Source: Pseudomonadota bacterium (GTDB taxonomy: Bacteria; Myxococcota_A; Polyangia; Fen-1088). From it: a DNA stretch of 64,000 bases. The stretch spans positions 2,093 through 66,092 of the forward strand of contig JAEXQJ010000307.1 of assembly GCA_023438785.1 (NCBI GenBank), read 5' to 3'. Each line of letters begins with the position of its first letter. Position 1 is the first letter of the stretch. Below, one piece after another: positions 2,829-43,785 of this stretch. The notes beneath the pieces were generated by a model. That model was not told where the DNA came from and ran no database searches. It saw only the letters and a list, made by a program, of their open reading frames with translations. The position numbers were made by a program, and so were the translations under genes.

Positions 2829-3755
2829 TCAGCGCTGGGCCACGTAGGCGATCACGCCGTAGCGCTTCTCGAAGGCGACCTTGCCGGCGAGTGCGTCTTT
2901 GGCGCTGGCAAAATCGCCCAATCGGACGCGGTACCACGTGCCCTTACCGGGGATTTCGGAGACCACCATGTAGGTCTTTTCCGCATCGAACTTCTTGGCG
3001 AACGCCTCGGCTTCGCCGCGCGTCTGAAACGAGCTGAGCTGCAGGGTGAAACGCGTCTTGCTTTTGGCGGCCTCGGTCGCAGTCGCGGCGATCACCGGGA
3101 CGGCCGCAGCCTTGGCTTCGGTCGGCTTGGGTGCGAGCTTGGTCTGGGGTACCGCATTGGCGGACTCGGGTGTCTTCACGTCGAGCTTGGCCACCTGCTT
3201 GGCCTCGGGCTTGGCTGCTTCGGCGGACTTGGGTGCCGCGGCTCTGGCCGGCTCGTCCTCGGCGACGGGCCTGGCGACGCCCTTGGCGCCCTCCCCGGCC
3301 TTGTCCTCAGGCTTGGCGGTCTGAGCGGGCTTGGCCGGCTCGGGCTTGGCCGGCTGAACGAGCTTGGCCGCCTCGGGCTTCGGCACATCGAGGCTGGTCG
3401 TCTCCACCGGCTTGGGATCTGGCTTCGCTCCGGCCTTCTTGCCGGTGGCCCCGGTCTTCCCGAACAGCGTCTGCGGGAACGTCACGGCCACGGCCTGACT
3501 GGCGCGCGGCGCGGCCGCGACCTTGTCGAGCAGAGCCAAGGGGTCCTCGGCTTCGGGCGCCACCGCGCGACCGCGCGACTCCAGTCGCTTGCCCACGATC
3601 ACACCGAGGACGAACAGCAGGCACGCCACCAGCGCACTGCCGAAGAACAGGAAGAAGACTTGCCGGTTGTCGAGGCGGACTTCGATCTTGTCGCGCCAGC
3701 GCTCGATATCGCGGAGGCCTCGCTCATCCATCGCTGCTCCGGAAGTGTAGCTCAT
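2829..3755 (-). CDS. SPOR-domain cell-division/peptidoglycan-binding protein with a TM anchor and a PAKPE-rich linker
   Basis: One TM segment (VFFLFFGSALVACLLFVLGVIVG), a long Pro/Ala/Lys/Glu low-complexity linker, and a C-terminal SPOR fold (FTLQLSSFQTRGEAEAFAKKF...GTWYRVRLGDF). The start was re-set to the ATG at 3755, which has a GAGGAG Shine-Dalgarno, so it does not overlap argS. Confidence 0.75.
   Translation of the reverse strand: MSYTSGAAMDERGLRDIERWRDKIEVRLDNRQVFFLFFGSALVACLLFVLGVIVGKRLESRGRAVAPEAEDPLALLDKVAAAPRASQAVAVTFPQTLFGKTGATGKKAGAKPDPKPVETTSLDVPKPEAAKLVQPAKPEPAKPAQTAKPEDKAGEGAKGVARPVAEDEPARAAAPKSAEAAKPEAKQVAKLDVKTPESANAVPQTKLAPKPTEAKAAAVPVIAATATEAAKSKTRFTLQLSSFQTRGEAEAFAKKFDAEKTYMVVSEIPGKGTWYRVRLGDFASAKDALAGKVAFEKRYGVIAYVAQR
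3290..3420. repeat. Imperfect short tandem repeats (gcttggccggctcgggctt-like) encoding the PAKPE linker of the SPOR protein
   Basis: Repeated ggcttggcc/ggcttcgg units are visible in the sequence. They match the AKPEPAKPAQTAKPE low-complexity peptide. Confidence 0.5.
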
Positions 3756-8700: not shown

Positions 8701-9040
8701 GGTCCAGGTCCACCAGACGGTTCCGATCCAAGTCCACCACCGACAACTCGCCTCGGGAGGTGTTGGTCACCACGGCGAAGGTCCCCAGAGTGCGCGGCGA
8801 GGTCAGGCCCGGGCAGCTGTTGCTCGCCGTGGCCTGCGCGCAGGCCCCAGCGGGTTGGCACACGCGCATGGGCTGGCCCGTGAGCACCTCGGTGCCATTC
8901 CCATCCTGCACGGTGGCCAGGCAGAGGAAGCCCATATCCGAAGGCCGTTCCAGATTGCGCGCCGGAATGACCGTGGGCGTATCGCTGCAGGATGAGAGCA
9001 GCACGAGCAGGGAGACAGAGACAAGGGCGTAACGCTTCAT
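5711..9040 (-). CDS. Very large (1109 aa) lipoprotein with beta-propeller (YVTN/NHL-like) repeats and Cys-rich modules
   Basis: Lipoprotein signal (LLVLLSSCS). Repeats of the LAVSPDGTRVYVGS and GTVYVTNL type, plus many paired Cys in the distal half. Its ATG overlaps the stop of the upstream gene (ATGA). Confidence 0.7.
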   Translation of the reverse strand: MKRYALVSVSLLVLLSSCSDTPTVIPARNLERPSDMGFLCLATVQDGNGTEVLTGQPMRVCQPAGACAQATASNSCPGLTSPRTLGTFAVVTNTSRGELSVVDLDRNRLVDLDPIVPGFGTVPVGTMPESLAASQDGCWVATANRQSCDLALIDPSRLLSPLFNDVGAASGAGAVVTRIQPTTASGRVLRAAPGEVAFLPTTEPAQLCSATQAPRALVTFPNCNLLALLDLPSGRILDSYYIQAGGAVRAGAEPECANDCLGTLDGGAAPSPADASLVDAGAEDAGQEDDSGASDAAAMDNAGSATAGPLGVSALAVSPDGTRVYVGSSQLPFISVFDLQGAALVDRGRLLLAGNAVGVDRLRLTVDPFKPRVENGQQVGQGDFLDNRGRFVYAFARDASVRVVQLDSTLANGIGRECDVNIEPSEANKAVLRQTLGVSGLTETDPVTGLPDPFSGPCIPVGTPGATRRPLASGPGITIPVLSSQDVQPPLARDIAFAELDVPEANWLSKPQGLTGQFGFLLASNGTVYVTNLAPNPEPLILRSNEDPDPAKFALEFIRSTATHAFREARSTGYAGARQPTTYTAPLRVQNASDLLFATTASLSPTQGPYVDSITLSANQSATGNIEHSWAAFPDPTSPVSHRWTIVWEELLPQTSRDSGTVLPGAENLAGTLIDAGGDFCSHSVLAGDLVVMPGCLKDTDCVPQDEFVCRRVSGGVRGLCLPKDSAAGKPLVQRCTRLLNSRRRYEIQTATPTQLTLGLKLDDVSRPPLSRQTLDECAADTDCYVTSAHRPSGADWPDGQADPGFQCLQIQAGGPRRCVKRCPAAGSPQGDNFCRPGNVCESVPGVLPEIGPLCVEAPPVDTACWPQPSVTYNVHAGRSFVVTGSSLPRTPTAKTVGGQCVRDTSVPPDRIPLSAPFCTSFQDDQPAQGNQPGQVNTPPEASLSIDRVVAPDPCLLMANVTLTNGTALGIHTKAVFQNTQIRFVLTNLEQYGGDGLGFRLDVSDGVTPETVLIPSYDIMLSQGVRIVVGPTRTPESPFRQSSFVPVEGQPPFSTQYPYLYLVDQGRTALSSSLSPARGQILRINPRRSSDAYAAFSPAVTGSATFQIQ

Positions 9041-17841: not shown

Positions 17842-18477
17842 TCAAACGCCCTGCGCATCCGGGCCCCAAATCCACTTGTGCAGCTGGACGTTGACACGAA
17901 CCGGGAGTCGGTCCCGCAAGATCCACGCCACCAGCTCGCGGGCATCCAGGGCTCCTGCCACGGGCGAGAAGAGCAATTCCGCTCGTCCGGCTAGGGCGCG
18001 CTTGCGGATCTGGTCGGCTGCCCACTGGTAGTCCACCTCGTCGCACAGGACGAACTTGATGGCGTCGCACGGCCGCAAGTCGGATACGGTTTCCCAGCAC
18101 ATGCGGTTGGATTCGCCCGAGCCCGGGGTCTTGACGTCGACCACGCGCACCACGGCGGGCGGGATCCCTCCCAGCGGGTGGGCGCCCGAGGTCTCGAGCA
18201 TCACGCGGAATCCGGCTGCCAGGAGCTGCTCCGCGAGCAGAGTGATTTCGGGCTGCAGCAGAGGCTCGCCCCCGGTCAGCAGAACCAGGGGCACGGCAAG
18301 CCGCTGCACCTCGGCCACGATCTCGTCCACGGACAGTTCCCGGCCCCCGTGGAAGGCGTGCACCGAGTCGCAATACCTGCAACGCAGGTCGCAGCCCGTG
18401 GTCCGCACCAACGTACAAGGCAAGCCCGCGTACTGCGTTTCGCCCTGGATGCTGGCGTAGATCTCCGTGATGCGCAT
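17842..18477 (-). CDS. queE: 7-carboxy-7-deazaguanine synthase (radical SAM)
   Basis: CTLVRTTGCDLRCRYCDS is the CxxxCxxC-type cluster motif. Length of 211 aa is typical of QueE. Confidence 0.88.
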   Translation of the reverse strand: MRITEIYASIQGETQYAGLPCTLVRTTGCDLRCRYCDSVHAFHGGRELSVDEIVAEVQRLAVPLVLLTGGEPLLQPEITLLAEQLLAAGFRVMLETSGAHPLGGIPPAVVRVVDVKTPGSGESNRMCWETVSDLRPCDAIKFVLCDEVDYQWAADQIRKRALAGRAELLFSPVAGALDARELVAWILRDRLPVRVNVQLHKWIWGPDAQGV

Positions 18478-30892: not shown

Positions 30893-33800
30893 TCAGGCGA
30901 TTCGGTAGCGCTTGAGTTTTTTCTGGAGCCCGAACCGAGACAGCCCCAGCGCATCCGCGGCTTTGGTCTGGTTGCCGCCGAAGCGTTGCATGGCCTCCCG
31001 CACCAGGATCGTTTCGAGGCGTTCGACTCTGGGGCGCAGGCGAAGCCCGTCGGGCTCGTCACTGACGATGAGGCTGGGGTCCGAGGCTGCCGCGACGTGC
31101 GGAGAAAGATCGTGGGTCGTGATGGCGGTGCCTGAGAAGGCGGCCGCGCGGGCGATTTCGTTCTCCAACTCGCGCACGTTTCCCGGCCAACGGTAGGCGC
31201 ACAGTCTGGCCATGGCCGACGCCTCCACGGACTTCGGCGGCGTGTTCCCGCCGGCGAGCTTGGCCAGCAGATGGTGGATGAGCAGCGGGATGTCCTCGCG
31301 TCGCTCGCGCAAGGGCGGCAGGGTGAGACGGACCACGGCGAGGCGGAAGAACAGGTCCTGGCGGAACTTGTTCTGCTCAACCATGCGCGCCAGATCCTTG
31401 TTCGTGGCCGCCACGATGCGCACGTCGACCCTCTGGGCGCGCTCTCCGCCGACGCGGTGGAACTCGCCGTTCTGGAGCACACGAAGCAGCTTGCCCTGCA
31501 TACCGGGCGACATCTCGGCCACCTCGTCCAGGAACAGCGTCCCTCCATCCGCCACGGCGAACAGCCCCCGCGATTCGCGGTCGGCACCGGTGAACGCGCC
31601 CTTGACGTGTCCGAAGAGCGTGGATTCGAGCAGTGTCTCGGGAATGGCGGCGCAGTTCTCGGAAATGAAAGGCCGTTCGCGCCGCGGGCCGTTGAAGTGA
31701 ATGGCACGGGCCACCAGTTCCTTCCCAGTGCCGCTTTCGCCCTCGATGACCACGGGCAGAGAGGTGTCGGTTACGCGATCGAGCAGGTGGAACAACTCGA
31801 GCATGCGCGGGGTTTGGCCGACGATCTGTCGGTAGTCGTAGCGGAGGTTCGCGGCTTCGCGGCTGATCTTCAGTTCCTCCCGAGCGCCCTGCAGGTCGGC
31901 CTCGCGGCGCTGGAGCTCGCGCTCCAGGCGTCGATTGAGCGCCTGGACCTGGTTCTCGCGGCGGCGCAGTTCTGCGATCAGGCGCACGTTCTCGATGGCG
32001 ATCGCCGCCTGTTCGCCGAAATCCATCACGGTGGCCAGGGCCTCGTCGTCGAAGACGCCCTTGCGTAACCGGTGGTCGACATAGATCGTGCCCACCACGT
32101 TGCCCTTGACGGCGAGGGGAACGGCCAGGACGGAGCGCAGGTGGAGATCGCTGACCGACAGCGCCTCGCGAAAGCGTTGATCCCCAGCCGCGTCGACGGT
32201 CATGACCGGCTGGCCGCTATCCGCTGCTTGTTTGGCGATGGAGCGCGAGAGGGTGAACTCGGGGCCCTCCAGCGAGTGTTGGTCGATGTTGCGCGCCACC
32301 CTCACGGAGAGCTCGCCACTTCCGTCCTTGAGCAGAAGGAATCCACGCTCCGCGTCTGTGAGCTCGATGACGGTGTCGATCACTGTCTCCAGCACGCGGG
32401 CCAGGCGCAGATCGCTGTTCAGACGTTTGTTGATGCGAAGGAGGCGGCGCAGCCGAGCGTCGGCCCGGGTGGCTCGCTCCAACGCAGGGGCCAGGTTGGC
32501 TTCCGCGTCGCCGCGCCGGCGCGGGGCATCGAGGCCAGCGGCGAGGCCAGCGCGGAATTGTGGCGGTGTGTTCATTCTGATCTCCTCGAAGCGATGCTCC
32601 GCACGCGGCAGCTCGGCCGCGGCCCGCGCACTGCCGACCCGATCCCAGAGTCGCCAGGCCAGCCCCCCGGCACGCAGGGCCAGGGGAAGCCTCCCCTGCC
32701 CTTGCGCCGTCTCGGCCAAGCGGGACAGGGTGGACGCGAGGGCGTCGTCGGTCTGGGGATCCGGGGGCGATGCGAGAGCGATGCGTGCCTTGGCCAGAGC
32801 GGGCGCGGCGTGGCTGGGCGTGGCCATCGCCCGGTCTCCGGCAGCCGTGCGCCAGACCTCCTCCGCCGCCTTCACCTGACCGGCCTGAGCGAATGCTTCT
32901 GCTCGGGCGAAGGCGGCGGATTGGGCCATGGCCTGGTTGCCCTGCCTCGCGAACGTCTCACCGGCTTTCGCGTACAGGGCCGCGGCCCGGTCGGGCTGCC
33001 TGGGACGAATCACATCGCCGTCCAGGTGGTATGCGAAGGCCACGAAGCTGTCGCCGCGCGCGGTCTCGGCCTCGGTGTGCAGGCGTTCGGAAATCCGTCC
33101 GGCCCCATGCTCATCGCCCAGTTGGAGGAGCAACTCGCCCGTGTTGAAAAGCGCAAGAGCGAGGTCGGTCGCGACCCGCAGGCGCCCGAGCTCCCGGGTG
33201 GCCTGCGGCAGGTACTGCAGAGCCTCGCTGTATTGGCCTGTTTCGGCGAGCGTGCAGCCCAGGTTCGATTTGGCGGTGGCGAGGCCGTGCACGTCGCCGC
33301 TGGCCTGGTATCGCTCCACCGCCTCTCGGTACGCGGCGGCGGCCTCGCGCGGCCGACCGGCCAGTTGGCAAATGAGTCCACGCATGGCCGGAAGACGCGC
33401 ATCGTTCGCGGCGCCGGGCTGCATCCGCTTGAGGAGAGAGTCCGCTTCGTCACCGCGACCCAGGTAGGCCAAAGCGAGGATTGCCGCCTCGTGATCGGCG
33501 CCTTCCGCAGTGGCCGAGTTGGCGTGGACTGCCGGGGCGGCCGCGGCCAGGGCTTGGTTAAAGAGACCGGCGGAGATCAGCAAGCGAGCCAGACGGGCCC
33601 GCATGGGGACGCGCAGCTCGTCGTTCTCCTCGCCCAACTCGTCGAGCGCTTGTTCGAGGATGCGACGGGCACCGTTGAGAGCGCCGCTGCGGCCGAGTAG
33701 CCAGGCTCGCCGCTCGGCAAGATGCGCTCTCTGCCCTGGGCTGGCCGCGCACGCGTCGTCGAGCAGATCCAGGGCCTCACGGTAGCGGCCCGCGATGCCC

Positions 33801-35815
33801 AAGGCCCGACTCCAGTCCAGGCGATCTGCGAGAGTCGCCACGGTCGAGTCGATGCGGAGCGCGCGCAAACCCCACCGCGCGGCCTCCGCGTAGCGTTCGG
33901 CGTGGATGGCGGACCGCGCGGCCGCGCAGAAGGTGTGCGCCGCCTCGCCGTGCTGGCCGAGCGCCCACTGGCCTTCGCCTCGCCGCGGGTCATCCTGGGG
34001 CAGTTCGGTCGCGCAGAGCCCGGCCAGGTCGGCCAGCGCGGGGTCAGCGGCCAGCGCGCGGCACACCGATTCCAGGTGCTGCGCCCCGGGCAGAGCTTCA
34101 CCCGAGGGAGCCAGCCAACCGGCCGCCCTGGCCTCGCTGGCTGCTCTCTCGCTCCGTTCCGGATCGAACCCGGCGAGCTCGGCCGCGCGCATCGGTGAAG
34201 GCGCCAGGGCCAAGGCCGTCACCCAACGCCGGCTTTCGGGACCCAGGGAGGCGAAGCTTCGATCGAGCAAGCCAGGCAGGTCTGGAGGCTCATCCGAGGA
34301 AGGAGCCGAGAGCGCCTCTCCCCTGACCCATTGGCGGACCAGCAGGGCAGCCGCTGCGGCCAAGCCACCTGAGGCGCGCGCGATTCGCTTCACCGTGGCC
34401 TCGCTGGGCAACTCGCCGGCCGCACGCCGGGCCAGTTCCTGGATCTCGGCCTCGTCCAGGGGGCGAAGTGCGAGGTCCATGGCGTCGGTACGCGCCCAGC
34501 CCTGCTCCACGGGCAAGACGACCAGCAGCCGCCCCGTGTTCCCAGCCGACGCGACGGCTTCGGCCCAGGCCTCTTCATCTGCGCCCGGGCCGAGGACGAG
34601 GCACAGCGGGCGCTCCCGTGCGCGCTCCTCGAGCTCTTGAATCATGGCCGCTCGTCGCGCCTCGGCCTGGCGTCCTGGATCGTCCGCCTCGGCCCCGTCC
34701 GGGAGACGTGCCAGATGGCCCAGGCCGGCTTCGTCGATTTGGAGGGCCGGCATGGCGCCCGAGAGGAGGCCCAGGCGGGCGTCGCGCAGGACACGCGCGA
34801 TGAGCGAGCGGCGCCCCGAGCCCGGTGGGCCAGAGACGGTGACGACGGCGGTGGGTGCGGCGCCTTCGGCCAGCTGTTCCAACGTGCGCAGAAGGGCCCG
34901 TTGTTGCTCTCGCCGCCCGACCAGAACCCCAGCCAGCGGATCGCCCGCCGGGGCCGGCGGGCAAAGCTCGACGGTCAGGTTCGGGTCGGGGATGCGGTTG
35001 TGGATCAGGCGGAGGAGCTCACGCGCGCTCGCGGGGCGCGCCTCCGGGGCGAAGGCCAGAAGGCGACAGAGCAACTCGTCCCACTCGGGTGCAAGTCCCG
35101 GGCAGAGCGCCGACGGCGGCGTCGCGGGCGCCTCCCAAATCCGTCGCGCTGACTCCGTGCCGACGCCAAAGGGAGCCACAGCGGTCCAGGCGTGGTAGAG
35201 GGTCGCGCCCAGGCTGAAGAGGTCGCTGGCCGGTTCGGGCTCGCCCACCAGCGCCTCGGGGGCGATGAAACCGAGTGTCCCCGCGGCCCCTCCGAGGTGC
35301 CGACGCTCCAGCGAGCAAGCCAGACCGAGATCGAGGAGGACGGGTTCGTCCTGCGCGTTGTAGCGCACGTTCGCGGGACTGATATCGCCGTGGAGGATGC
35401 CGCGACCGTGCAGGTAGGCGAGTGCGTCGGCCAGGCGAAGCGCGGCCCCGGCCAGTTGCGCGAAGCGCTCAGGGCTGGCATCCAGACGGTCGCTGAGCGT
35501 GGGCCCTGGCAGCAGCTCGCTCACCAGGAAGAGGCGGCCGTCTGGCAGCCGGCCCGCGTCGCGAATGCGCACGATGTTGGGATGGCCGAGGTCGCTCAGG
35601 CGGCCGAACTCGTCCAACGCGCGGGCCGCGCCCCGGTCGTCTCCGGACGCGCGGAAGAGCTTGATGGCGCACGTCTCCCCCGTGTCCCGATCCCGAGCTC
35701 GGAAGACCTGACCGGTCTGTCCCGCTCCCAGTCGCGGTCCCAGCTCATAGCGACCGCCCAGGAGATCGGAGGTCCGCCCGGCGCCGCGCGTGCCAACCTT
35801 ATTGGCTGAATCCAC
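30893..35815 (-). CDS. Giant (1640 aa) fusion regulator with six modules in order: Ser/Thr protein kinase, STAND-like P-loop NTPase, TPR array, GAF, sigma-54 interaction AAA+ domain (with GAFTGA), and Fis-type HTH
   Basis: Kinase: GxGxxG (LGAGQTGQV), VAIK (CAIKLF), HGDISPANV, DLG, APE. P-loop: VSGPPGSGRRSL. About 450 aa of TPR-like helical repeats. GAF: LARVLETVIDTVIELTDAERGFLLLKD. Sigma-54 activator core: GESGTGKE, GAFTGA, LFLDEV, RVIAATN-like. C-terminal HTH_8 (QTKAADALGLSRFGLQKKLKRY). GTG start. Confidence 0.85.
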   Translation of the reverse strand: MDSANKVGTRGAGRTSDLLGGRYELGPRLGAGQTGQVFRARDRDTGETCAIKLFRASGDDRGAARALDEFGRLSDLGHPNIVRIRDAGRLPDGRLFLVSELLPGPTLSDRLDASPERFAQLAGAALRLADALAYLHGRGILHGDISPANVRYNAQDEPVLLDLGLACSLERRHLGGAAGTLGFIAPEALVGEPEPASDLFSLGATLYHAWTAVAPFGVGTESARRIWEAPATPPSALCPGLAPEWDELLCRLLAFAPEARPASARELLRLIHNRIPDPNLTVELCPPAPAGDPLAGVLVGRREQQRALLRTLEQLAEGAAPTAVVTVSGPPGSGRRSLIARVLRDARLGLLSGAMPALQIDEAGLGHLARLPDGAEADDPGRQAEARRAAMIQELEERARERPLCLVLGPGADEEAWAEAVASAGNTGRLLVVLPVEQGWARTDAMDLALRPLDEAEIQELARRAAGELPSEATVKRIARASGGLAAAAALLVRQWVRGEALSAPSSDEPPDLPGLLDRSFASLGPESRRWVTALALAPSPMRAAELAGFDPERSERAASEARAAGWLAPSGEALPGAQHLESVCRALAADPALADLAGLCATELPQDDPRRGEGQWALGQHGEAAHTFCAAARSAIHAERYAEAARWGLRALRIDSTVATLADRLDWSRALGIAGRYREALDLLDDACAASPGQRAHLAERRAWLLGRSGALNGARRILEQALDELGEENDELRVPMRARLARLLISAGLFNQALAAAAPAVHANSATAEGADHEAAILALAYLGRGDEADSLLKRMQPGAANDARLPAMRGLICQLAGRPREAAAAYREAVERYQASGDVHGLATAKSNLGCTLAETGQYSEALQYLPQATRELGRLRVATDLALALFNTGELLLQLGDEHGAGRISERLHTEAETARGDSFVAFAYHLDGDVIRPRQPDRAAALYAKAGETFARQGNQAMAQSAAFARAEAFAQAGQVKAAEEVWRTAAGDRAMATPSHAAPALAKARIALASPPDPQTDDALASTLSRLAETAQGQGRLPLALRAGGLAWRLWDRVGSARAAAELPRAEHRFEEIRMNTPPQFRAGLAAGLDAPRRRGDAEANLAPALERATRADARLRRLLRINKRLNSDLRLARVLETVIDTVIELTDAERGFLLLKDGSGELSVRVARNIDQHSLEGPEFTLSRSIAKQAADSGQPVMTVDAAGDQRFREALSVSDLHLRSVLAVPLAVKGNVVGTIYVDHRLRKGVFDDEALATVMDFGEQAAIAIENVRLIAELRRRENQVQALNRRLERELQRREADLQGAREELKISREAANLRYDYRQIVGQTPRMLELFHLLDRVTDTSLPVVIEGESGTGKELVARAIHFNGPRRERPFISENCAAIPETLLESTLFGHVKGAFTGADRESRGLFAVADGGTLFLDEVAEMSPGMQGKLLRVLQNGEFHRVGGERAQRVDVRIVAATNKDLARMVEQNKFRQDLFFRLAVVRLTLPPLRERREDIPLLIHHLLAKLAGGNTPPKSVEASAMARLCAYRWPGNVRELENEIARAAAFSGTAITTHDLSPHVAAASDPSLIVSDEPDGLRLRPRVERLETILVREAMQRFGGNQTKAADALGLSRFGLQKKLKRYRIA

Positions 35816-35889: not shown

Positions 35890-36801
35890 TCATGGAGCAT
35901 CGGCAGCGTTGCGTGCAAGACGCTGCAAGGCGGCGCGGGCCATAATGCGAAGCTCCTCATCTTCGTGCGCATCGGCCACGAAGCTCAAATAGTCCGTCGC
36001 CTCCTTGCCTCCGATGGCGGCCACGGCATCGATGATCTTGCGCAGCTCGCGCCGGTCTCGCATGGAGCGGCTTCGGGTCAATTCGGCCACGGCCCGCCGC
36101 TCACGCAGCCGCACCAGCGCACCCAGAGCGGTATCGCGGGTGACCTCGTCCTCGTCCGAGAGAAGCCGCAGCAGCGCCGGCACCTGGTCGAGCAGTCGGC
36201 GCTCGGCCACGACGCGGATGGCCTCCAACCGGAGCTCCCCTCCGCCACCTTCGAGCGCGGCTTTCACCTGGTTCACGTCGCCGAGCCACAGCCGCTGGCG
36301 GGCCAGGTAGGCGCCCACCAAGTCGTCGAGGCTTTGTTCCACCAAGCCGCGCAGAGTGGTGAGCGCGGCCTCCGGTGTCGAGGTCCTCTCGGCCTGGAAC
36401 TCGCCATTCTCCCGAAAACGGGGCGCAGCGCTGCCCTCGGGGTGAATGTCGATGCGTAGGCGTGCCCTGGCGCGCGCGGCGGTCTTGCCGGGCACGGACA
36501 CGAATTCGCTCGCCACGTCGACGCGCACGTTGGCGAGCGGGCCCGTCGCATCGGGAAGCGCGGGGGCGAAGAGCGCAAGCAGACGAGTCCGCACCCGATC
36601 GGCCAAGGCAGCGCGATCCAAGCCGGGTTTGGCATCGCTGTCGGAGAGCAGGGTGACTTGTACGGAGCCCAGCCTGGGCAGCGGCTCGACGGGCGCGCGC
36701 GCCGGCGCTCGTCGACAGGCAGCGAGCGCCAAGGCCAACCCGGTCAGCGCGGCCATCCACCAGCGCAGCTCACTTCGCCGCGGCGGGTGACGCTTCATCA
36801 T
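35890..36801 (-). CDS. HEAT/PBS-lyase-repeat lipoprotein
   Basis: Lipobox (LALALAACR). The C-terminal half has HEAT-like repeats (LRLEAIRVVAERRLLDQVPALLRLLSDEDEVTRDTALGALVRL). ATG-ATG start. It overlaps the GNAT stop in an ATGA arrangement. Confidence 0.65.
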   Translation of the reverse strand: MMKRHPPRRSELRWWMAALTGLALALAACRRAPARAPVEPLPRLGSVQVTLLSDSDAKPGLDRAALADRVRTRLLALFAPALPDATGPLANVRVDVASEFVSVPGKTAARARARLRIDIHPEGSAAPRFRENGEFQAERTSTPEAALTTLRGLVEQSLDDLVGAYLARQRLWLGDVNQVKAALEGGGGELRLEAIRVVAERRLLDQVPALLRLLSDEDEVTRDTALGALVRLRERRAVAELTRSRSMRDRRELRKIIDAVAAIGGKEATDYLSFVADAHEDEELRIMARAALQRLARNAADAP

Positions 36802-37280
36802 CCCAGGCGCTTGGCCAGCGTGACCAGATCGTCGCCCGGCCGGTAGAAGTCCTGGATGAGCCCCACGGTGGTGTAGCCGGCCCGCTCGTAAAAGCGCCGC
36901 GCCCCACCCTGCCCTTCGAGGCTGGAGGTCTCGATACGCAGCAGGCAGGCCTTGCGGTTACGCAGCTCCGTCTCCAGATCGGCCAGGAGCTTGCCACCCA
37001 AGCCGCGCCCGCGCTGTTCAGCCGCCGTCACCAGCCAGTACAGGTCGTAGGTGGCCTCGGTCATGGGCACGGCGCCGAAGCACGCGTAGGCCAGAGGGCG
37101 GTCGTCGTCGTCCACCAAGACGAGGGCCTCGTAGGTGTTGCCCTCTGGCGGGGCGAGCACCGCTTCGAGGAGCTCCAGCGCACACGCCACTTCCTCCGGG
37201 CGGAATGGATTGCCCGTGTCAGGGGCAATCAGGTTCGTGAGCGCAGATCGATCTTTGGGCGAGGGAATTCGTGTTTGCAT
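36798..37280 (-). CDS. GNAT family N-acetyltransferase
   Basis: Acetyl-CoA binding motif A (QRGRGLGGKLLADLE) and a length of 160 aa. Confidence 0.8.
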   Translation of the reverse strand: MQTRIPSPKDRSALTNLIAPDTGNPFRPEEVACALELLEAVLAPPEGNTYEALVLVDDDDRPLAYACFGAVPMTEATYDLYWLVTAAEQRGRGLGGKLLADLETELRNRKACLLRIETSSLEGQGGARRFYERAGYTTVGLIQDFYRPGDDLVTLAKRLG

Positions 37281-38316
37281 CCGAGTGCCTGGAAAGGGCC
37301 AAGCTGACGAGTCGCAAGACTACATCCTTGTACGCCAGGCCGCCCGCTTTGGCGGCTCGCGCGTACCCGCCGGCCACATGCGACAGGTCGCAGTTGGGAT
37401 TCACGTCGATGACGTAGGGCGTGCCGTCGGCGTGCAGGCGAATGTCGACGCGGCCGTAGTCGCGCAGTCCGATGGCCCGGAAGGCGTCTTGCGCAACTGT
37501 CTTCACCCGCGCCTGCAGGGCTTCGGACAGACCCGTGCAGGGGACCGGCTTGGTGCCTCGGTACTCGACCGAGTCCTCCACCCACTTGGCCTCGAATGAC
37601 ACGATCTTGGGGCGGTCCGCCGGCATGTCGCCAAAGTCGATCTCGAAAAACGGGAACACCTGGGGCTCGTCCCTCACGCGGCCCAGGAGGGAGACGTAGA
37701 TCTCGCGCCCGTCGACGAACTCTTCGACCAGCGCGGGCTGCCGGTAGTGTGCAAGCACGTGGGAAACGCGGGTGGCCAGCGCCGTGCGGTCGTGAACGAC
37801 GGAGGCGCTGCAGATGCCCACCGAGGCGTCCTCGCGGGCCGGCTTCACGATGAGGGGGAAGGCGAGGGAGAGCTCGTCCAGCTCAGTCACGGCACGCACC
37901 AAAACGCCGCGGGGCACGGGCACGCCGCGCGCCCACAGGATGTCTTTGACCTTCTCCTTGCGTAGGGCCAGCGACAGGGCGAACGCGGGCGAGCCCGTGT
38001 GGGGCAGGCCCTCCAGTTCCAGCAGCAGGGGCAGCAGGCACTCGAACCGGTTGTCGCCTTTGATCGATTCGCACAGGTTGAAGACCGCGGTGGGCTTCAA
38101 CTGGCGCAACTCGCTCACCGACGCGAGCACGTCATCGGTGATCCCAAGGGCGCACGCCTGGAAGTCGCTCTCGTTCAAGATGTGAACGATGTGCTCCGCG
38201 ATGTCCCGGATGTCCTCGCGCGCCTTGTTCTCCGGATCGGCGGTCGCGCCCTCGAAGTCGCGGTTGTAGGCCACGACGATTCGCGGCCGGCTGGGGGACT
38301 GCACGTGGTTGGGCAT
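37219..38316 (-). CDS. D-Ala-D-Ala ligase-family ATP-grasp ligase (divergent paralog, not the housekeeping Ddl)
   Basis: ATP-grasp core (FPLIVKPAREDASVGI, EEFVDGREIYVSLLG, IDVNPNCDLS) with a Ddl-like N-domain. It overlaps the downstream GNAT by about 60 nt as called. Confidence 0.8.
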   Translation of the reverse strand: MPNHVQSPSRPRIVVAYNRDFEGATADPENKAREDIRDIAEHIVHILNESDFQACALGITDDVLASVSELRQLKPTAVFNLCESIKGDNRFECLLPLLLELEGLPHTGSPAFALSLALRKEKVKDILWARGVPVPRGVLVRAVTELDELSLAFPLIVKPAREDASVGICSASVVHDRTALATRVSHVLAHYRQPALVEEFVDGREIYVSLLGRVRDEPQVFPFFEIDFGDMPADRPKIVSFEAKWVEDSVEYRGTKPVPCTGLSEALQARVKTVAQDAFRAIGLRDYGRVDIRLHADGTPYVIDVNPNCDLSHVAGGYARAAKAGGLAYKDVVLRLVSLALSRHSDANTNSLAQRSICAHEPDCP

Positions 38317-38317
38317 C

Positions 38318-39010
38318 TCAGTGGGGCGCTTTCGGCAAGGGCAATCGAGAGGCGGGAAATTCGTGGAAGTGGCGCTGCAGGTGTCGCTCGAAGATCGCGA
38401 TGGATGAGCGCGCCAGGGGCTCGACCCGCGGCGCCTCCCCCAGCTCGCGGGCCATGGAGGTCACGCCCGCGTCCGAGAGGCCGCAGGGCACGATGGTGGC
38501 GAAGCCGTCCAGGGCGGTGTGCACGTTGAGCGCAAAGCCGTGGATGGCCACGCCGTGGCGCACGTGCACGCCGAACGCGCAGATCTTGTCGTCCTTCACC
38601 CAGACGCCAGGCCGATCGGCGCGCCATTCGCCCGCGATATTGAAGGTGGCCAGCAGCTCGATCACGCCCGCCGCCATGGCCTCCACATGCGCGCGCACCC
38701 CACGGCGCAGGCGGAAGATGGGGTAGCCCACCAGTTGACCGGGACCATGGTAGGTCACGTCGCCGCCGCGGGTGCAGGGGTGCACTTCGATGCCGCGGGC
38801 CCGCAGCTCCGCGGGTGCAAGCCGCAGGTTCGCGGGGTCGGCATGGCGGCCCAGGGTGACCACGGGGCTGTGTTCGAGCAAGAGCAGGATGTCGCGGCCG
38901 CTCCCGTCTCGAATGCGACCGCGCAATTCCTCCTGCAGTTGGGCCACCGGGCCATACGGGGCAAGGCCCAACCACGCCCAGTCCGCGTCGGGCAGGGCCT
39001 CTCCCGGCAC
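38318..39010 (-). CDS. lipB: Octanoyltransferase (lipoyl/octanoyl transferase)
   Basis: LLLLEHSPVVTLGRH...GGDVTYHGPGQLVGYPIF...DKICAFGVHV, the LipB active-site region. GTG start. Confidence 0.9.
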   Translation of the reverse strand: MPGEALPDADWAWLGLAPYGPVAQLQEELRGRIRDGSGRDILLLLEHSPVVTLGRHADPANLRLAPAELRARGIEVHPCTRGGDVTYHGPGQLVGYPIFRLRRGVRAHVEAMAAGVIELLATFNIAGEWRADRPGVWVKDDKICAFGVHVRHGVAIHGFALNVHTALDGFATIVPCGLSDAGVTSMARELGEAPRVEPLARSSIAIFERHLQRHFHEFPASRLPLPKAPH

Positions 39011-39014
39011 GGAC

Positions 39015-40574
39015 TCAGCCTTCGGAGATCTCGGCGAAGAAGTCAGCGTCGACGAACTCCACGTTGACGTTCGCGCTGATCACTCCCACACCGTGGCGTG
39101 CGCAGGTCTCCGCGAGCGCCGGACCGTCCACCACCTCGACGGGCGGACCGGGCTGCTTCCACTCGCTGATGGCGTCGTCGGCCAGACGGCCAGCCAGAAT
39201 GAGCAGCCCCTCGTCTTGGTTGCGCGCCCGGATGCCTGCCCGCAGCTCGCCGATGGCACGGCGGCCCGCGGAGGACGACCCGGCACGTAGAGCGATGAGG
39301 CACTTCGAGGGCCGGAAGCCTCGCCCACGCAACGCCTCGACGTAGACCGTCGTCTCCACGCGCTTGACGAAGGTGGCCGGGCCAAAGCCCTCGCGCTGGA
39401 GCAACACGCGCGCGATGGCCTCGAAGGCCGCAGGAGCTAGCTCGCCCATGCGCTGCTCGATGGCCGCCATGGTCCGCTCTCGCAGGGCGCGGCGGGCTTC
39501 ACCGAAGACGTGCTCGGCCTTCTCCAGATCCGAGTCCGGAGGACGGCGCGCCAGGGCGTACAAACCGCTGCCCGCGGGCTTGATGCGCGGTCTCTGCCCC
39601 GCACGCAGCCGCTCCTTGCCCTCCGCCGCCAGGGCCGAGCGCATCACACGCCAAGCCTCGTTCGGTTCACCGTGAATCAGGCGACGGCGCACGGCCGCGT
39701 CGGCAATCTGGCGCACGTGCAGGCCTCGCCCCGGCGCCTGGCCGCGCAGGATCTCTGCCGCCGCATCGCCAGGGGCCATGATCTTGCGAGCCTGCTGGGG
39801 CGCCTCTGCGACCTGCGCCTCAGCGGCGCCGCTGGGCGCGGCGGGACGGCTCTCGGGCTCTTCGGCCTTGGCCTCACTGGGTTCCGCCTCGCTCGGCTCG
39901 CCCTCGGGAGCGGCTTCGCCGCCCTCTTCTGCACGGGCCTCCGCCTCGGGCGCTTCCTCGCCTGCCTCCGCGGACGGCGCCTCGCGCTCCTCTTCCTCTT
40001 CGCCCTCGACCGAACCTTCCAGGACGCCGGTCTCGGCCAGAGCCGCGGCTCGTGCCTCAGCGGACAGCGAGCCAATCTCGGGCTCCTCAGGACCTTCCTG
40101 GCCCTCGTGCTCCTCGGCCGACGGCGCGGCACCTGTCTCTGCGGCGGCCTCGCTGCCCTCGGTGGCTCGCTCGGCGGCTTCCGTGGTGCGCTCGGCCCCA
40201 CCCCGGCGCCGCCCCCGGCCTCCGCGCCGACGTCGCCTTCCGGTCCGGCCCTCGCCGGCTGCGGCCTGCGCCTCGCCCTTGGCGGCCGCCTCCTCCTGTG
40301 CCTCGGCGGGCGTCTCGACCTGTGGCTCGGGCTCAGGTTCGGGCGCGGCCTCCGGATAGCGAAGCAGGCCGAAAACCCCCGGCTTGACCCGAACGAACGG
40401 ATTGCCCGGCGCCTTCTTCACGGCGTTGGTGAGCTGGGTCTGCATGGTGACCTCAGGCGTTCTGCCCACGAAGGTCAACAGCTTCCGGTCCATGGCCTTC
40501 TCGGTCATCTCCTTGAAGTGCAGGGGCCGACGCTCGCGCTTCAAGATCTCAAGTGCTGCTTCCAGGAAAGTCAT
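39015..40574 (-). CDS. HARE-HTH domain protein with a long poly-acidic (E/A/G-rich) linker and a C-terminal Mrr-like restriction-endonuclease-fold domain
   Basis: N-terminus MTFLEAALEILKRERRPLHFKEMTEKAM...GLLRY is HARE-HTH. About 200 aa are highly acidic. The C-terminus (FEAIARVLLQREGFGPATFVKRV...CLIALR) has an Mrr_cat-like PD-(D/E)xK fold. Confidence 0.7.
   Translation of the reverse strand: MTFLEAALEILKRERRPLHFKEMTEKAMDRKLLTFVGRTPEVTMQTQLTNAVKKAPGNPFVRVKPGVFGLLRYPEAAPEPEPEPQVETPAEAQEEAAAKGEAQAAAGEGRTGRRRRRGGRGRRRGGAERTTEAAERATEGSEAAAETGAAPSAEEHEGQEGPEEPEIGSLSAEARAAALAETGVLEGSVEGEEEEEREAPSAEAGEEAPEAEARAEEGGEAAPEGEPSEAEPSEAKAEEPESRPAAPSGAAEAQVAEAPQQARKIMAPGDAAAEILRGQAPGRGLHVRQIADAAVRRRLIHGEPNEAWRVMRSALAAEGKERLRAGQRPRIKPAGSGLYALARRPPDSDLEKAEHVFGEARRALRERTMAAIEQRMGELAPAAFEAIARVLLQREGFGPATFVKRVETTVYVEALRGRGFRPSKCLIALRAGSSSAGRRAIGELRAGIRARNQDEGLLILAGRLADDAISEWKQPGPPVEVVDGPALAETCARHGVGVISANVNVEFVDADFFAEISEG
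39780..40360. repeat. GC-rich low-complexity coding repeat (gag/gcc/ggc-rich) encoding the poly-Glu/Ala linker of the HARE-HTH protein
   Basis: Runs of gcctcggc/ctcctc/ggcttc units are visible. Confidence 0.5.
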
Positions 40575-40684
40575 GGCGCCCCGGTCTTTACCACAAATCG
40601 GCCCGCCAGTGGCGCGACGGCACAGGGCAGATGCGCGTGAGTGCTTTTTTTGACCGCACCCGTCGCCGGGGGTACCCGTGAGGG

Positions 40685-41686
40685 ATGAGCTCGACGCGCA
40701 AAATTGGAGTGCTCCTCGGCGGTCTTTCGGTAGAGCGGGACGCCTCGATCCGGGCGGGCGAAGCGGTGCTGACCGCCCTGCGCGGCCTGGGGCACGATGC
40801 CCATCCTCTCTTCGTGGATCGGGACGTCGACATCGCGCTCCGACAGAGCCGCATCGACGTGGCCTTCTTGGCCGTGCGTGGGCGCTACGGCGCCGACGGC
40901 TGTCTGCAAGGAATGCTCGAGGTATTGGGCATCCCGTACACGGGCTCGGGGGTCCTGGCGTGCGGGCTCACCATGAATCGGGCCAAGACCAAGGACGTGC
41001 TCCGCCTGCACAACCTACCGACCGCGCCAGCCTATATCGTCAACTCCCATCAAGAGCAGAACCTGGCCGACCTTCATGGTTCTTTCGGCTTCCCCGTGGT
41101 CGTGCGACCGGTGGGGGCTTCCGTGCTCCTGGGCGGCACCCTGGCCCGGGACGAGATGGAGTTGGAGAGTGCCCTGGAGGACGTCTTCCGTCTGGAAGAC
41201 GAGGCCCTGGTCGAGCGCCTGGTGCAGGGCCACCCGCTGTGCGTGGCCGTGCTCGACGGCGAGCCATTGGGCGCGGTGGAGGTGCCACGGGCTGGCTCGT
41301 GGGTGGGACTGCGCTCGGTGGGCGCCAAGGGCCAAGAGATCTGCGCGCCATTGCGCCTCTCACCGGCGCGCCATGCCTCCGTGCTGCGTATGGCCTGCCA
41401 GGCCTACGAGGCTTTGGGCTGCGAGGGCGCGGCGTGTGTGGAGATGGTCGTCAGCGAGCGCCTCAACGAGACCATCGTCGACATCGATACGTCTCCCCTC
41501 CTCCTGCCGGGCAGCCCGTTTGCTCGCATCGCCGCCGACGCGGGCCTGGGCTTCGAGGAGTTGGTCGAGGAGCTGCTCAAGGGAGCCCGCGTGCGGGCCC
41601 ATGGATTGCGGCGCAACCGGCGTGCGACGCAGGTCGAGTTCGAGGGTCCGGACCGCCGTGCGTCGGCTGTCCCGGCCGCGCACTGA
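40685..41686 (+). CDS. ddl: D-alanine--D-alanine ligase
   Basis: KIGVLLGGLSVERDASIRAG...GRYGADGCLQGMLEVLGIPYTGSGVLA. 333 aa. GAGGGA Shine-Dalgarno. Confidence 0.92.
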   Translation: MSSTRKIGVLLGGLSVERDASIRAGEAVLTALRGLGHDAHPLFVDRDVDIALRQSRIDVAFLAVRGRYGADGCLQGMLEVLGIPYTGSGVLACGLTMNRAKTKDVLRLHNLPTAPAYIVNSHQEQNLADLHGSFGFPVVVRPVGASVLLGGTLARDEMELESALEDVFRLEDEALVERLVQGHPLCVAVLDGEPLGAVEVPRAGSWVGLRSVGAKGQEICAPLRLSPARHASVLRMACQAYEALGCEGAACVEMVVSERLNETIVDIDTSPLLLPGSPFARIAADAGLGFEELVEELLKGARVRAHGLRRNRRATQVEFEGPDRRASAVPAAH

Positions 41687-41742: not shown

Positions 41743-43785
41743 TTGACCCGTCGCCGCCGCACCATTTGGTTCATCGCCACGCTCGTCTCCGGCCTTCTGC
41801 TGTGCGCGGGGCTGGTGCTCCTGCGCGCCAAGATGTTGCCGCGGTTGGCGCAGCGCCTGGAGCAGGTCACCGGCCACCGCGTGGTCATCGGTGGCATCGG
41901 CATCGCGGGGTTGCGCACCCTGAGCCTGCGCGATGTGCGTGTGTTCGGCGCGCCGCCCTTCGACCGCGAACCCCTGGCCCGCATCGAGCGCCTGGACGTG
42001 CGGCTGGGTGGTCCCGGGCGCGGCGCGTGGGATGCGAGCGCCGTGACCCTGGACGGCGTGGACGTGGAGTTCCTCAGCACGGGGACCTCCGACAACTGGC
42101 GCGGCCGCCCAGGAGCCACCGTTGCATCGGCGGGACCGGCGGTCACCTCCCCGCCACGCCCGTCGCTGACCGTGAGCGTGCGCAGGGCGCGGGTGCACGG
42201 CACGGTCGTCTTGCCGCAGGCCGGGCGGATCGGCATCCGCATCGCCGACCTGTCCTTTGATCGCGGCCTGGACGGCCAGGAGAACACGTCCGCGCGAGGC
42301 GTGGTCATCGATGCGGGGCCCTTCGCGACCCTGCGCTTGCCTTCTCTGACCATCACCACCCATCGAGGAACCCCGGTGGCGTCTCAGGGCGAAGCGGCCA
42401 GTCTGAGTGTGCCGGGAGGTGGCGTGCTGGCCGAGGGCCTCACGGCGCGCGCCCAGTTTTCCGGTCAGGGCATCTCCTTCGAGCTCCAGGCCGAGGGAGC
42501 GGCGCCCATCCTCAAGCTGGCCTGTCACCTGTCGGGCGAGTTGGGCGATCTGGATCTGCAGATGGCGCGTTTGCCTTTGCGTGCCTTGGCACCCGTGCTG
42601 GAGCCTCGCGGTTTGGGGCTCGATCGGGCGGTTGCCGATGTGCACATCATGGCCTCCCTGGCCGGGGCACCACCGCGCGTCCCCTACCAGATCGACGCCG
42701 AGCTGCGGGACTTCGACATCCATCACGGGGCCGTGGATCGCGCGCCCTGGCGTGGATTGAGCGCGGAGGCACACGCCACCGGACTGCTTGACGTGGCCGG
42801 CAAACGTCTGGAGGTCGAATCGGCAGAGCTGAAGGCGCTCGGCGCTACGCTGCACATCAAGGGCTGGGCTGACTTCGCCCACGAGCCGCGCGGTGTCCTC
42901 AGCGTGACGACGCCGGCGCCCCTGCCCTGCGCGAACCTGCTGGCCGCCCAGGCCGAACCCGTGCAGCAGGTGTTGGCTGGTTTGGCACTGGATGGTTCGT
43001 TGGGCGTGTCCCTGGATCTGGGCTTCGATGCGGCGGATTGGGAGGCCTTGACCCTCAACCTGCGTTTGGATCCCCTCTGCCGGGTGAGGACCGAGCCGGG
43101 CGCGCTGTCTGCTCTGGCCATGGGGCTGGCCAGGGGGCAGCCGGCCGGCGCACCCGCGACACGGCTTCCGCTGGGGAAGTATCACCCCGATTTCGCATCG
43201 CTGAGCGAGATGCCCGCCCATCTCCCGGCTGCATTCCTGACGGCAGAGGACAGCCGTTTCTTCGCGCACAACGGGTTCGACCTGGAGATGATCCGGCGTG
43301 CCCTCGTGCAAGACCTGCAGGCCCACGCCTTCTCCCGCGGGGCCAGCACGATTTCCCAGCAACTCGCCAAGAATCTCTTCCTCTCGCCCCACCGGACGTT
43401 GGCGCGCAAGCTCGAAGAGACGGTGCTGACTTGGCGCCTGCAAAACCTGGTAGGCAAAGCGCGCATCCTCGAGCTGTATCTCAACGTCATCGAGCTGGGG
43501 CCGGGGATTCGAGGCGTCAAAGAGGCGGCCCGCGCTTACTTCGGCAAGTCGCTCGCCGAGCTGCGCCCCATCGAGTCGGCCCACTTGGCCGCGCTGACCC
43601 CCAACCCGCACGCCCTGGCCCGACGCTTTCGTGACGGCTACGTGGACGAGGGCTGGCTGCAGCGCCTCTATGATCTCTTGAGCATGATGCGACGGAGCGG
43701 GCGGCTCACGCCTGCCGATCTGGCCGCCGCTCGGGTGAGCAAACTGACGCTGCGCCGGCCGGTCAAGGACACCGCCGCGCCGTAA
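41743..43785 (+). CDS. AsmA-like N-terminal membrane-anchored protein with a C-terminal peptidoglycan glycosyltransferase (GT51 transglycosylase) domain
   Basis: Probable TTG start (M-TRRRRTIWFIATLVSGLLLCAGLVLL signal anchor). The C-terminus carries the GT51 signatures EDSRFFAHNGFD, STISQQLAKNLFLS, RKLEE, ELYLNV. The track ORF begins inside ddl in another frame. Confidence 0.7.
   Translation: MTRRRRTIWFIATLVSGLLLCAGLVLLRAKMLPRLAQRLEQVTGHRVVIGGIGIAGLRTLSLRDVRVFGAPPFDREPLARIERLDVRLGGPGRGAWDASAVTLDGVDVEFLSTGTSDNWRGRPGATVASAGPAVTSPPRPSLTVSVRRARVHGTVVLPQAGRIGIRIADLSFDRGLDGQENTSARGVVIDAGPFATLRLPSLTITTHRGTPVASQGEAASLSVPGGGVLAEGLTARAQFSGQGISFELQAEGAAPILKLACHLSGELGDLDLQMARLPLRALAPVLEPRGLGLDRAVADVHIMASLAGAPPRVPYQIDAELRDFDIHHGAVDRAPWRGLSAEAHATGLLDVAGKRLEVESAELKALGATLHIKGWADFAHEPRGVLSVTTPAPLPCANLLAAQAEPVQQVLAGLALDGSLGVSLDLGFDAADWEALTLNLRLDPLCRVRTEPGALSALAMGLARGQPAGAPATRLPLGKYHPDFASLSEMPAHLPAAFLTAEDSRFFAHNGFDLEMIRRALVQDLQAHAFSRGASTISQQLAKNLFLSPHRTLARKLEETVLTWRLQNLVGKARILELYLNVIELGPGIRGVKEAARAYFGKSLAELRPIESAHLAALTPNPHALARRFRDGYVDEGWLQRLYDLLSMMRRSGRLTPADLAAARVSKLTLRRPVKDTAAP

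Follow-up and report, generated by a model that had tools for sequence, protein, structure and literature searches.

The 64-kb stretch of DNA analysed here (the window, of about 68% G+C and part of a 77-kb metagenomic contig, to which all coordinates below refer) is a core chromosomal region of a metagenome-assembled genome of Polyangia (Myxococcota), and this report describes a pair of overlapping minus-strand genes within it that encode a Ddl-like ATP-grasp ligase and a GNAT N-acetyltransferase. By fold the first protein is a member of the ATP-grasp ligase superfamily, with an intact catalytic apparatus and a substrate pocket that is not that of Ddl; going by its sequence, it is predicted not to be a D-alanine ligase. 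The explanation towards which we lean is that ligase and acetyltransferase form a two-enzyme unit, the B-ligase/GNAT half of an uncharacterised four-gene cassette, which would make an N-acetylated amino-acid or peptide conjugate. The features concerned are given below (aa, amino acids; nt, nucleotides).

37219-38316, minus strand: B-type ('AGb') Ddl-like ATP-grasp ligase, 365 aa (assigned from Pfam, NCBIfam, active-site residues, an AlphaFold2 model and a neighbour-joining tree)
36798-37280, minus strand: GNAT N-acetyltransferase, 160 aa (Pfam Acetyltransf_1/7/10)
37219-37280, minus strand: out-of-frame overlap of 62 nt between the 3' end of the ligase gene and the start of the GNAT gene, read as translational coupling

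A Ddl-like fold with a different substrate pocket

In Pfam the ligase matches Dala_Dala_lig_C only, the N-terminal domain of Ddl (PF01820) being unmatched, and it falls under every curated Ddl or Van cut-off of NCBIfam (117 bits for NF002378, cut-off 243; 97 bits for TIGR01205, cut-off 245.65). Its AlphaFold2 model, built with 52 homologs, has a three-domain Ddl-like fold at a predicted local distance difference test score (pLDDT) of 93.4, and the top matches of this model in a Foldseek search against the PDB are all Ddl (template modelling score, TM, 0.7/0.84; 20-26% identity), which bears out the full Ddl-like fold proposed in an earlier, sequence-only reading of this DNA. The closest relatives in fold and sequence are small-molecule ligases, namely Ddl and the L-amino-acid ligase 3vot, and identity to the Ddl-family gene at 40685-41686 is only 26%.

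When the residues of the ligase were mapped onto the numbering of E. coli DdlB, those that serve ATP, Mg and catalysis were found to be kept (K97, K144, E148, K215, R255, D257, E270 as D, and N272), and K120, K158, E162, K244, R289, D291, D304 and N306 (numbering of the ligase itself) are conserved or invariant. Because the catalytic residues are retained, the protein would act as a carboxylate-amine ligase, converting its substrate with ATP into an acyl-phosphate and then into an amide. The residues that hold D-Ala are changed (E15A, H63E, S150A, Y216W and M259R), the N-T-S-P-G loop of DdlB reads N-P-N-C-D with G276 replaced by D, S281/L282 are G/G, and the GGxSxE motif of Ddl is absent. Most of the residues that have taken their place in the pocket are acidic (E83, D163, E225 and D310); these, together with the aminomutase that partners the ligase in other phyla, suggest that the substrate may be a basic amine, of which diamino acids such as beta-lysine are an example.

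The phylogeny, computed by neighbour joining with 200 bootstraps, places E. coli DdlB and the syntenic ddl genes in a 99% clade that excludes the window ligase, and the Myxococcota ligases in a clade of their own (86%). An 89% split separates Ddl, the A-type ligases and the double ligases from the B-type, GNAT-fused and Myxococcota ligases, A and B being the two ATP-grasp types of the cassette described below; the A-type ligases form a 95% clade. The window ligase is 37-42% identical to B-type vs about 34% to A-type ligases and has the B-type signature (A150, W216, R259 and N-P-N-x-D276). D304 and C309 (DdlB positions 270 and 275) are common to all Myxococcota sequences examined; outside this phylum D270 was seen only in the GNAT fusions P0307 and P0491, and C275 only in the B-type ligase of locus L091. 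The paralog is thus distinct from Ddl, as the sequence-only reading held, since it lies outside the 99% Ddl clade and its D-Ala residues are replaced; a redundant housekeeping Ddl was ruled out by model scores, residues and phylogeny alike.

The window ligase belongs to a subfamily for which a profile search of 1.84 billion cluster representatives recovered 2,458 clusters (50% identity) at E<=1e-30. The best 150 members share a non-Ddl signature composed of FNL(C/A)E, EDAS, K-W, R-x-Y-x-R-x-D-x-R and E/D-x-N-P-N-P/C-D. Members occur as single ligases of about 340-390 aa, as tandem double ligases of 640-730 aa and as ligase-GNAT fusions of about 500-545 aa; they are labelled 'D-alanine-D-alanine ligase' by the JGI pipeline and mostly just 'ATP-grasp domain-containing protein' by NCBI. 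The subfamily is a large, uncharacterised group of amide-bond-forming enzymes, and the automatic label of D-alanine-D-alanine ligase borne by thousands of its proteins in databases is almost certainly wrong. A literature search, the coverage of which did not extend to Iyer et al. 2009, found no study on the subfamily, the cassette or the GNAT structure 2r7h; that article is reportedly the key comparative paper on ATP-grasp/GNAT amidoligases.

The GNAT partner and a four-gene cassette in other phyla

The GNAT protein passes the Pfam cut-offs of PF00583 (42.2 bits vs 20.7) and PF13508 (39.3 vs 27) and carries the acetyl-CoA motif R/Q-x-x-G-x-G/A as RGRGLG from residue 90. It is an ortholog of the protein of PDB entry 2r7h (E 1e-25, with shared motifs) and shows 36-37% full-length identity to the GNATs encoded behind B-type ligases in other phyla, the motifs common to the orthologs being F-x-P-E-E-V-x-x-A-L-E-L, Y-D-L-Y-W, E-T-S and F-Y-x-x-G-D-D. 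Identity with RimI (the ribosomal protein S18 alanine acetyltransferase) was ruled out, since the score with TIGR01575 is 38.8 bits and the cut-off of 86.4 is not reached; neither AblB nor Ngg models are among the nine NCBIfam families that match the GNAT at E<=0.01.

The gene overlap of the window recurs elsewhere: ligase and GNAT genes overlap by 11-26 nt in five cassettes of other phyla (L085, L086, L088, L089 and L093) and, as far as the overlap can be measured, by 116-173 nt in the remaining Myxococcota loci that have a GNAT. In further members the two proteins are fused (P0307, P0317, P0332, P0343, P0359, P0382 and, by its Pfam domains, P0491). Taken together, the fusions, the orthology across phyla and the conserved overlap make it very likely that ligase and GNAT are a functional pair, as had been proposed from the sequence alone. 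The translationally coupled GNAT would use acetyl-CoA to N-acetylate the substrate or the product of the ligase, and what the pair makes would be a small amino-acid or peptide conjugate that bears an N-acetyl group, formed from a substrate other than D-Ala-D-Ala.

Two features of these gene ends are recorded separately. Many database entries of the GNAT (among P0168-P0237) are about 130 aa long, gene callers having placed the start further downstream and so avoided the overlap with the ligase; the form of about 160 aa is the real one, because its N-terminal 30 residues are conserved across phyla. At the end of most Myxococcota ligase open reading frames (L004-L083) there is a conserved stretch of basic character (...RAPRGGAGSA or ...RRRARSG). 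Where a GNAT follows, this tail overlaps the GNAT start out of frame by 116-173 nt, and it is kept where the GNAT is absent; the tail is lacking in the window and its two closest relatives.

The gene context of ten subfamily members from lineages outside Myxococcota was looked up, some of which could be placed, from the names of their sources or from an RNA marker, in Planctomycetota, Acidobacteriota, Desulfobacterota and Bacteroidota. A KamA-family radical-SAM aminomutase adjoins the ligase in nine of these contexts, and seven hold a full cassette of ATP-grasp A, ATP-grasp B, GNAT and aminomutase. The best model for the aminomutases is that of lysine-2,3-aminomutase (TIGR03820, 460-529 bits, the cut-off of 525 being passed by one), and their scores with the EpmB model (233-261 bits) are well under its cut-off of 369. 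Both its signature residues and its position directly upstream of, and overlapping, an orthologous GNAT identify the window ligase as the B type. By tblastn with three queries each, no aminomutase and no A-type ligase was found in the window or in 80 Myxococcota species loci with flanks of +/-8 kb; the Myxococcota form of the cassette would consist of the B ligase alone or of the B ligase and the GNAT. A single radical-SAM gene was seen in the window (17842-18477, minus strand); its small protein, of 211 aa, has no LAM_C domain and is unmatched by the aminomutase queries.

The most plausible product of the four-gene cassette is a peptide or solute that contains beta-lysine and is acetylated. 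That it represents a new and widespread pathway to acetylated beta-lysine peptides, of which Myxococcota keep a core-genome derivative, is a wider proposal that we hold tentatively, at somewhat below even chances. In the mechanism proposed for the window pair, the beta-lysine step is the weakest part for the present organism, in which no aminomutase lies nearby. The sequence-only reading had suggested a modified D-amino acid or a cell-wall precursor as the product; nothing points there, and the aminomutase and second ATP-grasp ligase found outside Myxococcota point instead to chemistry of the beta-lysine type.

Further observations were made around the cassettes. On a Desulfobacterota contig (L087:848-7017) one ATP-grasp gene is separated from the aminomutase-ligase pair by genes for a histidine kinase and a sigma-54 response regulator; a site with one mismatch to TGGCAC-N5-TTGC occurs there at 3648-3662 and is not significant alone, as 54 of 200 shuffles reach one match. 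The tandem double ATP-grasp protein of L090 (6001-13941; 693 aa) has no adjoining GNAT or aminomutase and is neighboured by TANGO2, Peptidase_S58 (a DmpA-type aminopeptidase) and Peptidase_S66 genes. In L084, L085 and L092 the cassette is followed by Peptidase_M24 genes, and the peptidase genes of these four loci together hint that a peptide product is turned over. Downstream of the cassette region of L091 (12203-12688), the Acido-Lenti-1 small RNA occurs four times in less than 500 nt, with copies on both strands, which supports the assignment of this contig to Acidobacteriota. Small open reading frames beside some of the cassettes (71 aa in L087, 74 aa in L090 and 85 aa in L086) were considered as carrier peptides and rejected, since they are mutually unrelated and the one in L087 is lipoprotein-like.

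The gene string in Myxococcota and its degenerate Ddl neighbour

In the window the pair forms part of six open reading frames that lie head to tail on the minus strand, from 40574 down to 30893. The other members, and two plus-strand genes next to them, are as follows.

39015-40574, minus strand: HARE-HTH/Mrr protein (Pfam: HARE-HTH twice, Mrr_cat; acidic linker); first gene of the string
38318-39010, minus strand: lipB, octanoyltransferase (NF010925, 157 bits vs cut-off 155; TIGR00214, 134.5 vs 83.55)
35890-36801, minus strand: HEAT-repeat lipoprotein (Pfam HEAT_2, 31 bits vs cut-off 27.7; signal peptide, lipobox LAAC)
30893-35815, minus strand: Ser/Thr kinase with AAA_16/TPR, GAF, sigma-54 activator and Fis-type HTH regions, 1640 aa (Pfam, NCBIfam)
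40685-41686, plus strand: degenerate Ddl ortholog ('dead Ddl') with both Ddl Pfam domains, divergent from the string
41743-43785, plus strand: transglycosylase-domain protein (Pfam Transgly), 56 nt downstream of the dead Ddl

The coordinates, junctions and domain content of this string, which the sequence-only reading had described, all hold by open reading frame calls, Pfam and NCBIfam. Besides the 62-nt overlap of ligase and GNAT, the junctions comprise a gap of 4 nt between the HARE-HTH/Mrr and lipB genes (TGAgtccGTG), one of 1 nt between lipB and the ligase (TGAgATG), an ATGA overlap between the GNAT and the HEAT lipoprotein, and a gap of 74 nt between the latter and the kinase-GAF-sigma54 activator. 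Housekeeping genes surround the string (those for ArgRS, a class-II tRNA synthetase, PPDK, RecO, S1, SMC, FtsY, TrpAB, HemE and L28), and the relatives of the window are Myxococcota throughout, most of them with a Polyangia label.

The arrangement is more than chance. Among the 80 Myxococcota loci, where neighbours were counted only in those with enough flank, lipB adjoins the ligase in 67 of 70, HARE/Mrr lies upstream in 61 of 64 and the HEAT lipoprotein downstream in 64 of 69, and the kinase-sigma54 activator follows downstream in most; the order lipB-ligase-HEAT is thus preserved in more than 90% of the loci. Of the two outcomes that the sequence-only reading had named as speaking against it, a tight grouping of the ligase with Ddl and a gene order not kept in relatives, neither was seen. 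The GNAT follows the ligase in 26 of 78 loci and is absent from 52, so that an obligatory GNAT partner is not supported; the GNAT has been lost repeatedly in Myxococcota. The most divergent loci (L063 of Nannocystaceae, and L075, L077, L080 and L081 of Myxococcaceae) keep ligase and GNAT, the other genes of the string being gone, and in L063 the pair stands between two convergent genes. Because these loci keep the pair and no other member, ligase and GNAT appear to be an old core, around which the six-gene string looks like a class-level synteny block and not a six-gene pathway.

In the model drawn from the sequence-only reading, all six genes would work as one functional unit whose product is an amino-acid or dipeptide signal in modified form, the synthesis of which the kinase-sigma54 activator controls or senses. 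Such a model would account for the tight or overlapping junctions and for the order conserved among Myxococcota loci, and a different sigma-54 activator does stand beside the aminomutase-ligase pair of L087. It is nevertheless very improbable, since lipB, HARE/Mrr, HEAT and kinase-activator genes accompany the ligase only in most Myxococcota loci, being absent from the five divergent loci just named and from all ten contexts of other phyla; moreover, lipB encodes a genuine enzyme of lipoate metabolism, the HEAT protein is a lipoprotein destined for export, and no sigma-54 promoter match exceeds chance. In the latter scan, made upstream of and within the string, 65 matches with up to two mismatches were obtained vs a chance expectation of 71, none of them well placed. 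A generic promoter and terminator scan was uninformative, and no riboswitch or other RNA element was found in the window or upstream of the cassettes. A functional link between the ligase and lipB was likewise discarded, as they co-occur in none of the ten contexts of other phyla and their adjacency is clade-level synteny. In practice, the string should not be annotated as one pathway.

An anti-phage defence system was also considered and ruled out for lack of PADLOC support: ligase, GNAT, lipB and Ddl gave no match, and the flanking genes match generic kinase, AAA and Mrr domains only. In the HARE-HTH/Mrr protein the linker is long, acidic and of low complexity, and the C-terminal half (the second HARE-HTH and Mrr_cat) is mostly 65-83% identical across Myxococcota loci, above most neighbours. 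Elsewhere in the window, two minus-strand frames (5711-9040, 1109 aa; 1502-2707, 401 aa) have coding-like codon usage and no Pfam match at E<=1e-5.

The plus-strand neighbour, taken in the sequence-only reading for a canonical housekeeping ddl, is, judged by its position and its descent, an ortholog of Ddl, but it has lost 14 of the 15 catalytic and substrate residues of DdlB, E15 being the only one kept (K97R, K144R, E148A, S150V, S151L, E187P, K215S, Y216V, R255C, D257E, E270D, N272D, G276L and L282P), and it scores 218 bits with NF002378, under the cut-off of 243. The same substitutions occur in 18 of the closest species loci and other degenerate patterns in nine more, and an intact Ddl (13-15 of the 15 residues) occupies the same position in 29 Myxococcota loci. 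With NF002378, intact syntenic orthologs (L022 and L030, 15 of 15 residues) score 367-368 bits and degenerate ones 207-218. In comparison with its dead-Ddl relatives this gene is the best conserved of the block (69-73% identity; 64-71% for the ligase), and from its residue pattern it appears to be a conserved pseudo-enzyme and not a decaying gene. The Ddl orthologs also have a C-terminal extension of about 30 aa (window 41590-41686; RAHG..RRNRRATQ..FEGPDRRAS..AH) that E. coli DdlB does not have, seen in all six relatives displayed (including L018, L026, L027, L051 and L083), five of them degenerate and one, L083, largely intact (10 of 15). A degenerate Ddl conserved in about twenty species of Polyangia, with an intact enzyme at the same position in sister lineages, offers a natural experiment in pseudo-enzyme evolution and raises the question of how these bacteria make D-Ala-D-Ala, the target of D-cycloserine and vancomycin.

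This neighbour also brings in a cell-wall role for the ligase, which would then provide peptidoglycan synthesis with D-Ala-D-Ala, or a variant depsi- or dipeptide, and so make up for the Ddl that has decayed at the syntenic position. That decay presupposes some redundant activity, the ligase has a Ddl-family fold and lies 2.4 kb from the Ddl ortholog without catalytic residues, itself beside a glycosyltransferase, and no other Ddl homolog was found in the 64-kb window. A real ddl may, however, lie elsewhere in the genome; E15, S150, Y216, G276 and L282, which bind D-Ala, are all replaced in the ligase, its active-site signature is the same whether the Ddl of the lineage is intact or dead, and in other phyla the subfamily is paired with an aminomutase and a GNAT and not with mur genes. 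We regard this role as very improbable, and give still a little less credence to the specific form of it in which the B-type ligase of the Polyangia clade came to provide, or had all along helped to provide, the terminal dipeptide of peptidoglycan as a non-orthologous replacement of Ddl.

Weighing the proposal and comparison with known systems

Several points weigh against the two-enzyme unit that makes an acetylated conjugate. The lack of an aminomutase and of an A-type ligase in the window and the Myxococcota loci means that the beta-lysine inference may not transfer to this organism. The GNAT is missing in two thirds of the relatives and the ligase is still highly conserved there; therefore acetylation is not essential to the role of the ligase in those organisms. 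In the literature, no subfamily member with a known substrate and no paper on the subfamily was found. Finally, a core cellular role, for instance in the modification of proteins or of the envelope, agrees with the housekeeping context and the high conservation no less well than does the synthesis of a solute.

A core role of this kind could be that of a protein-modifying pair, in which the ATP-grasp enzyme adds an amino acid to a side chain or a terminus of a protein, as RimK and tubulin-tyrosine ligase do, and a RimI-like GNAT acetylates that protein or one related to it, such as a ribosomal protein or a translation factor. RimI is the best curated match of the GNAT, and homologs are labelled 'RimI-like' by their sources; the genes lie in a core-genome housekeeping context (L28, FtsY, SMC and tRNA synthetases), and the ligase, 47-80% identical across Myxococcota loci, persists without the GNAT and without an aminomutase. 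It is established, moreover, that EF-P modification in other bacteria uses beta-lysine (PMC2821294). This alternative is nonetheless unlikely: the RimI score of the GNAT is far under the cut-off, the cassette aminomutases fall short of EpmB by a wide margin, the ligase has its closest relatives in fold and sequence among small-molecule enzymes (Ddl and 3vot), and no candidate target gene is conserved beside ligase and GNAT.

DdlB, DdlA and the VanA-type D-Ala-D-Lac and D-Ala-D-Ser ligases share with the window ligase the three-domain ATP-grasp fold and the residues that handle ATP, Mg and phosphate, and therefore the same acyl-phosphate mechanism would be expected. The window ligase differs from Ddl in being only 20-26% identical, in having no N-terminal Pfam domain and in the replacement of E15, H63, S150, Y216, G276, S281 and L282. 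With the cassette of A and B ligases, GNAT and KamA-family aminomutase of other phyla, for which no published description was found in the literature, the window shares the B-type signature and the overlapping orthologous GNAT, whereas the A-type ligase and the aminomutase are absent from it and from the 80 Myxococcota loci, in which the GNAT is often lost as well. The GNAT ortholog 2r7h, from structural genomics, bears the name 'putative D-alanine N-acetyltransferase of GNAT family', which is a prediction.

Operon-linked ATP-grasp ligases have been described in which a GNAT may add an acyl cap to the product (PMC4431377). A related logic is found in the asnO-ngg osmolyte pathway, where Ngg (N-acetylglutaminylglutamine synthetase) N-acetylates and ligates glutamine to give an N-acetyl dipeptide osmolyte (PMC8070244). 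The likeness lies in the combination of GNAT acetylation with peptide-bond formation and in the peptidase of the asnO-ngg operon, as with Peptidase_M24 in L084, L085 and L092. Ngg is, however, a single bifunctional protein of another family, and neither the window ligase nor its GNAT has an Ngg-type NCBIfam match at E<=0.01; the ligase domain of Ngg is also of the ATP-grasp type. In the AblA/AblB system, a lysine-2,3-aminomutase and a beta-lysine N-acetyltransferase produce N-epsilon-acetyl-beta-lysine (PMC3543383). The cassettes of other phyla resemble it in placing an AblA-like aminomutase beside a GNAT, aminomutation being followed by acetylation, and differ from it in that their GNAT, of about 160 aa, belongs to another family with no AblB model match and that two ATP-grasp ligases are added; the window, in addition, has no aminomutase. 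The subfamily and its partners (the GNAT with structure 2r7h, the second ligase and the lysine aminomutase) provide a testable entry to an unstudied amide-ligase pathway of at least five phyla, and the window pair is of a known sort, an ATP-grasp amide ligase with a GNAT, drawn from an uncharacterised subfamily.

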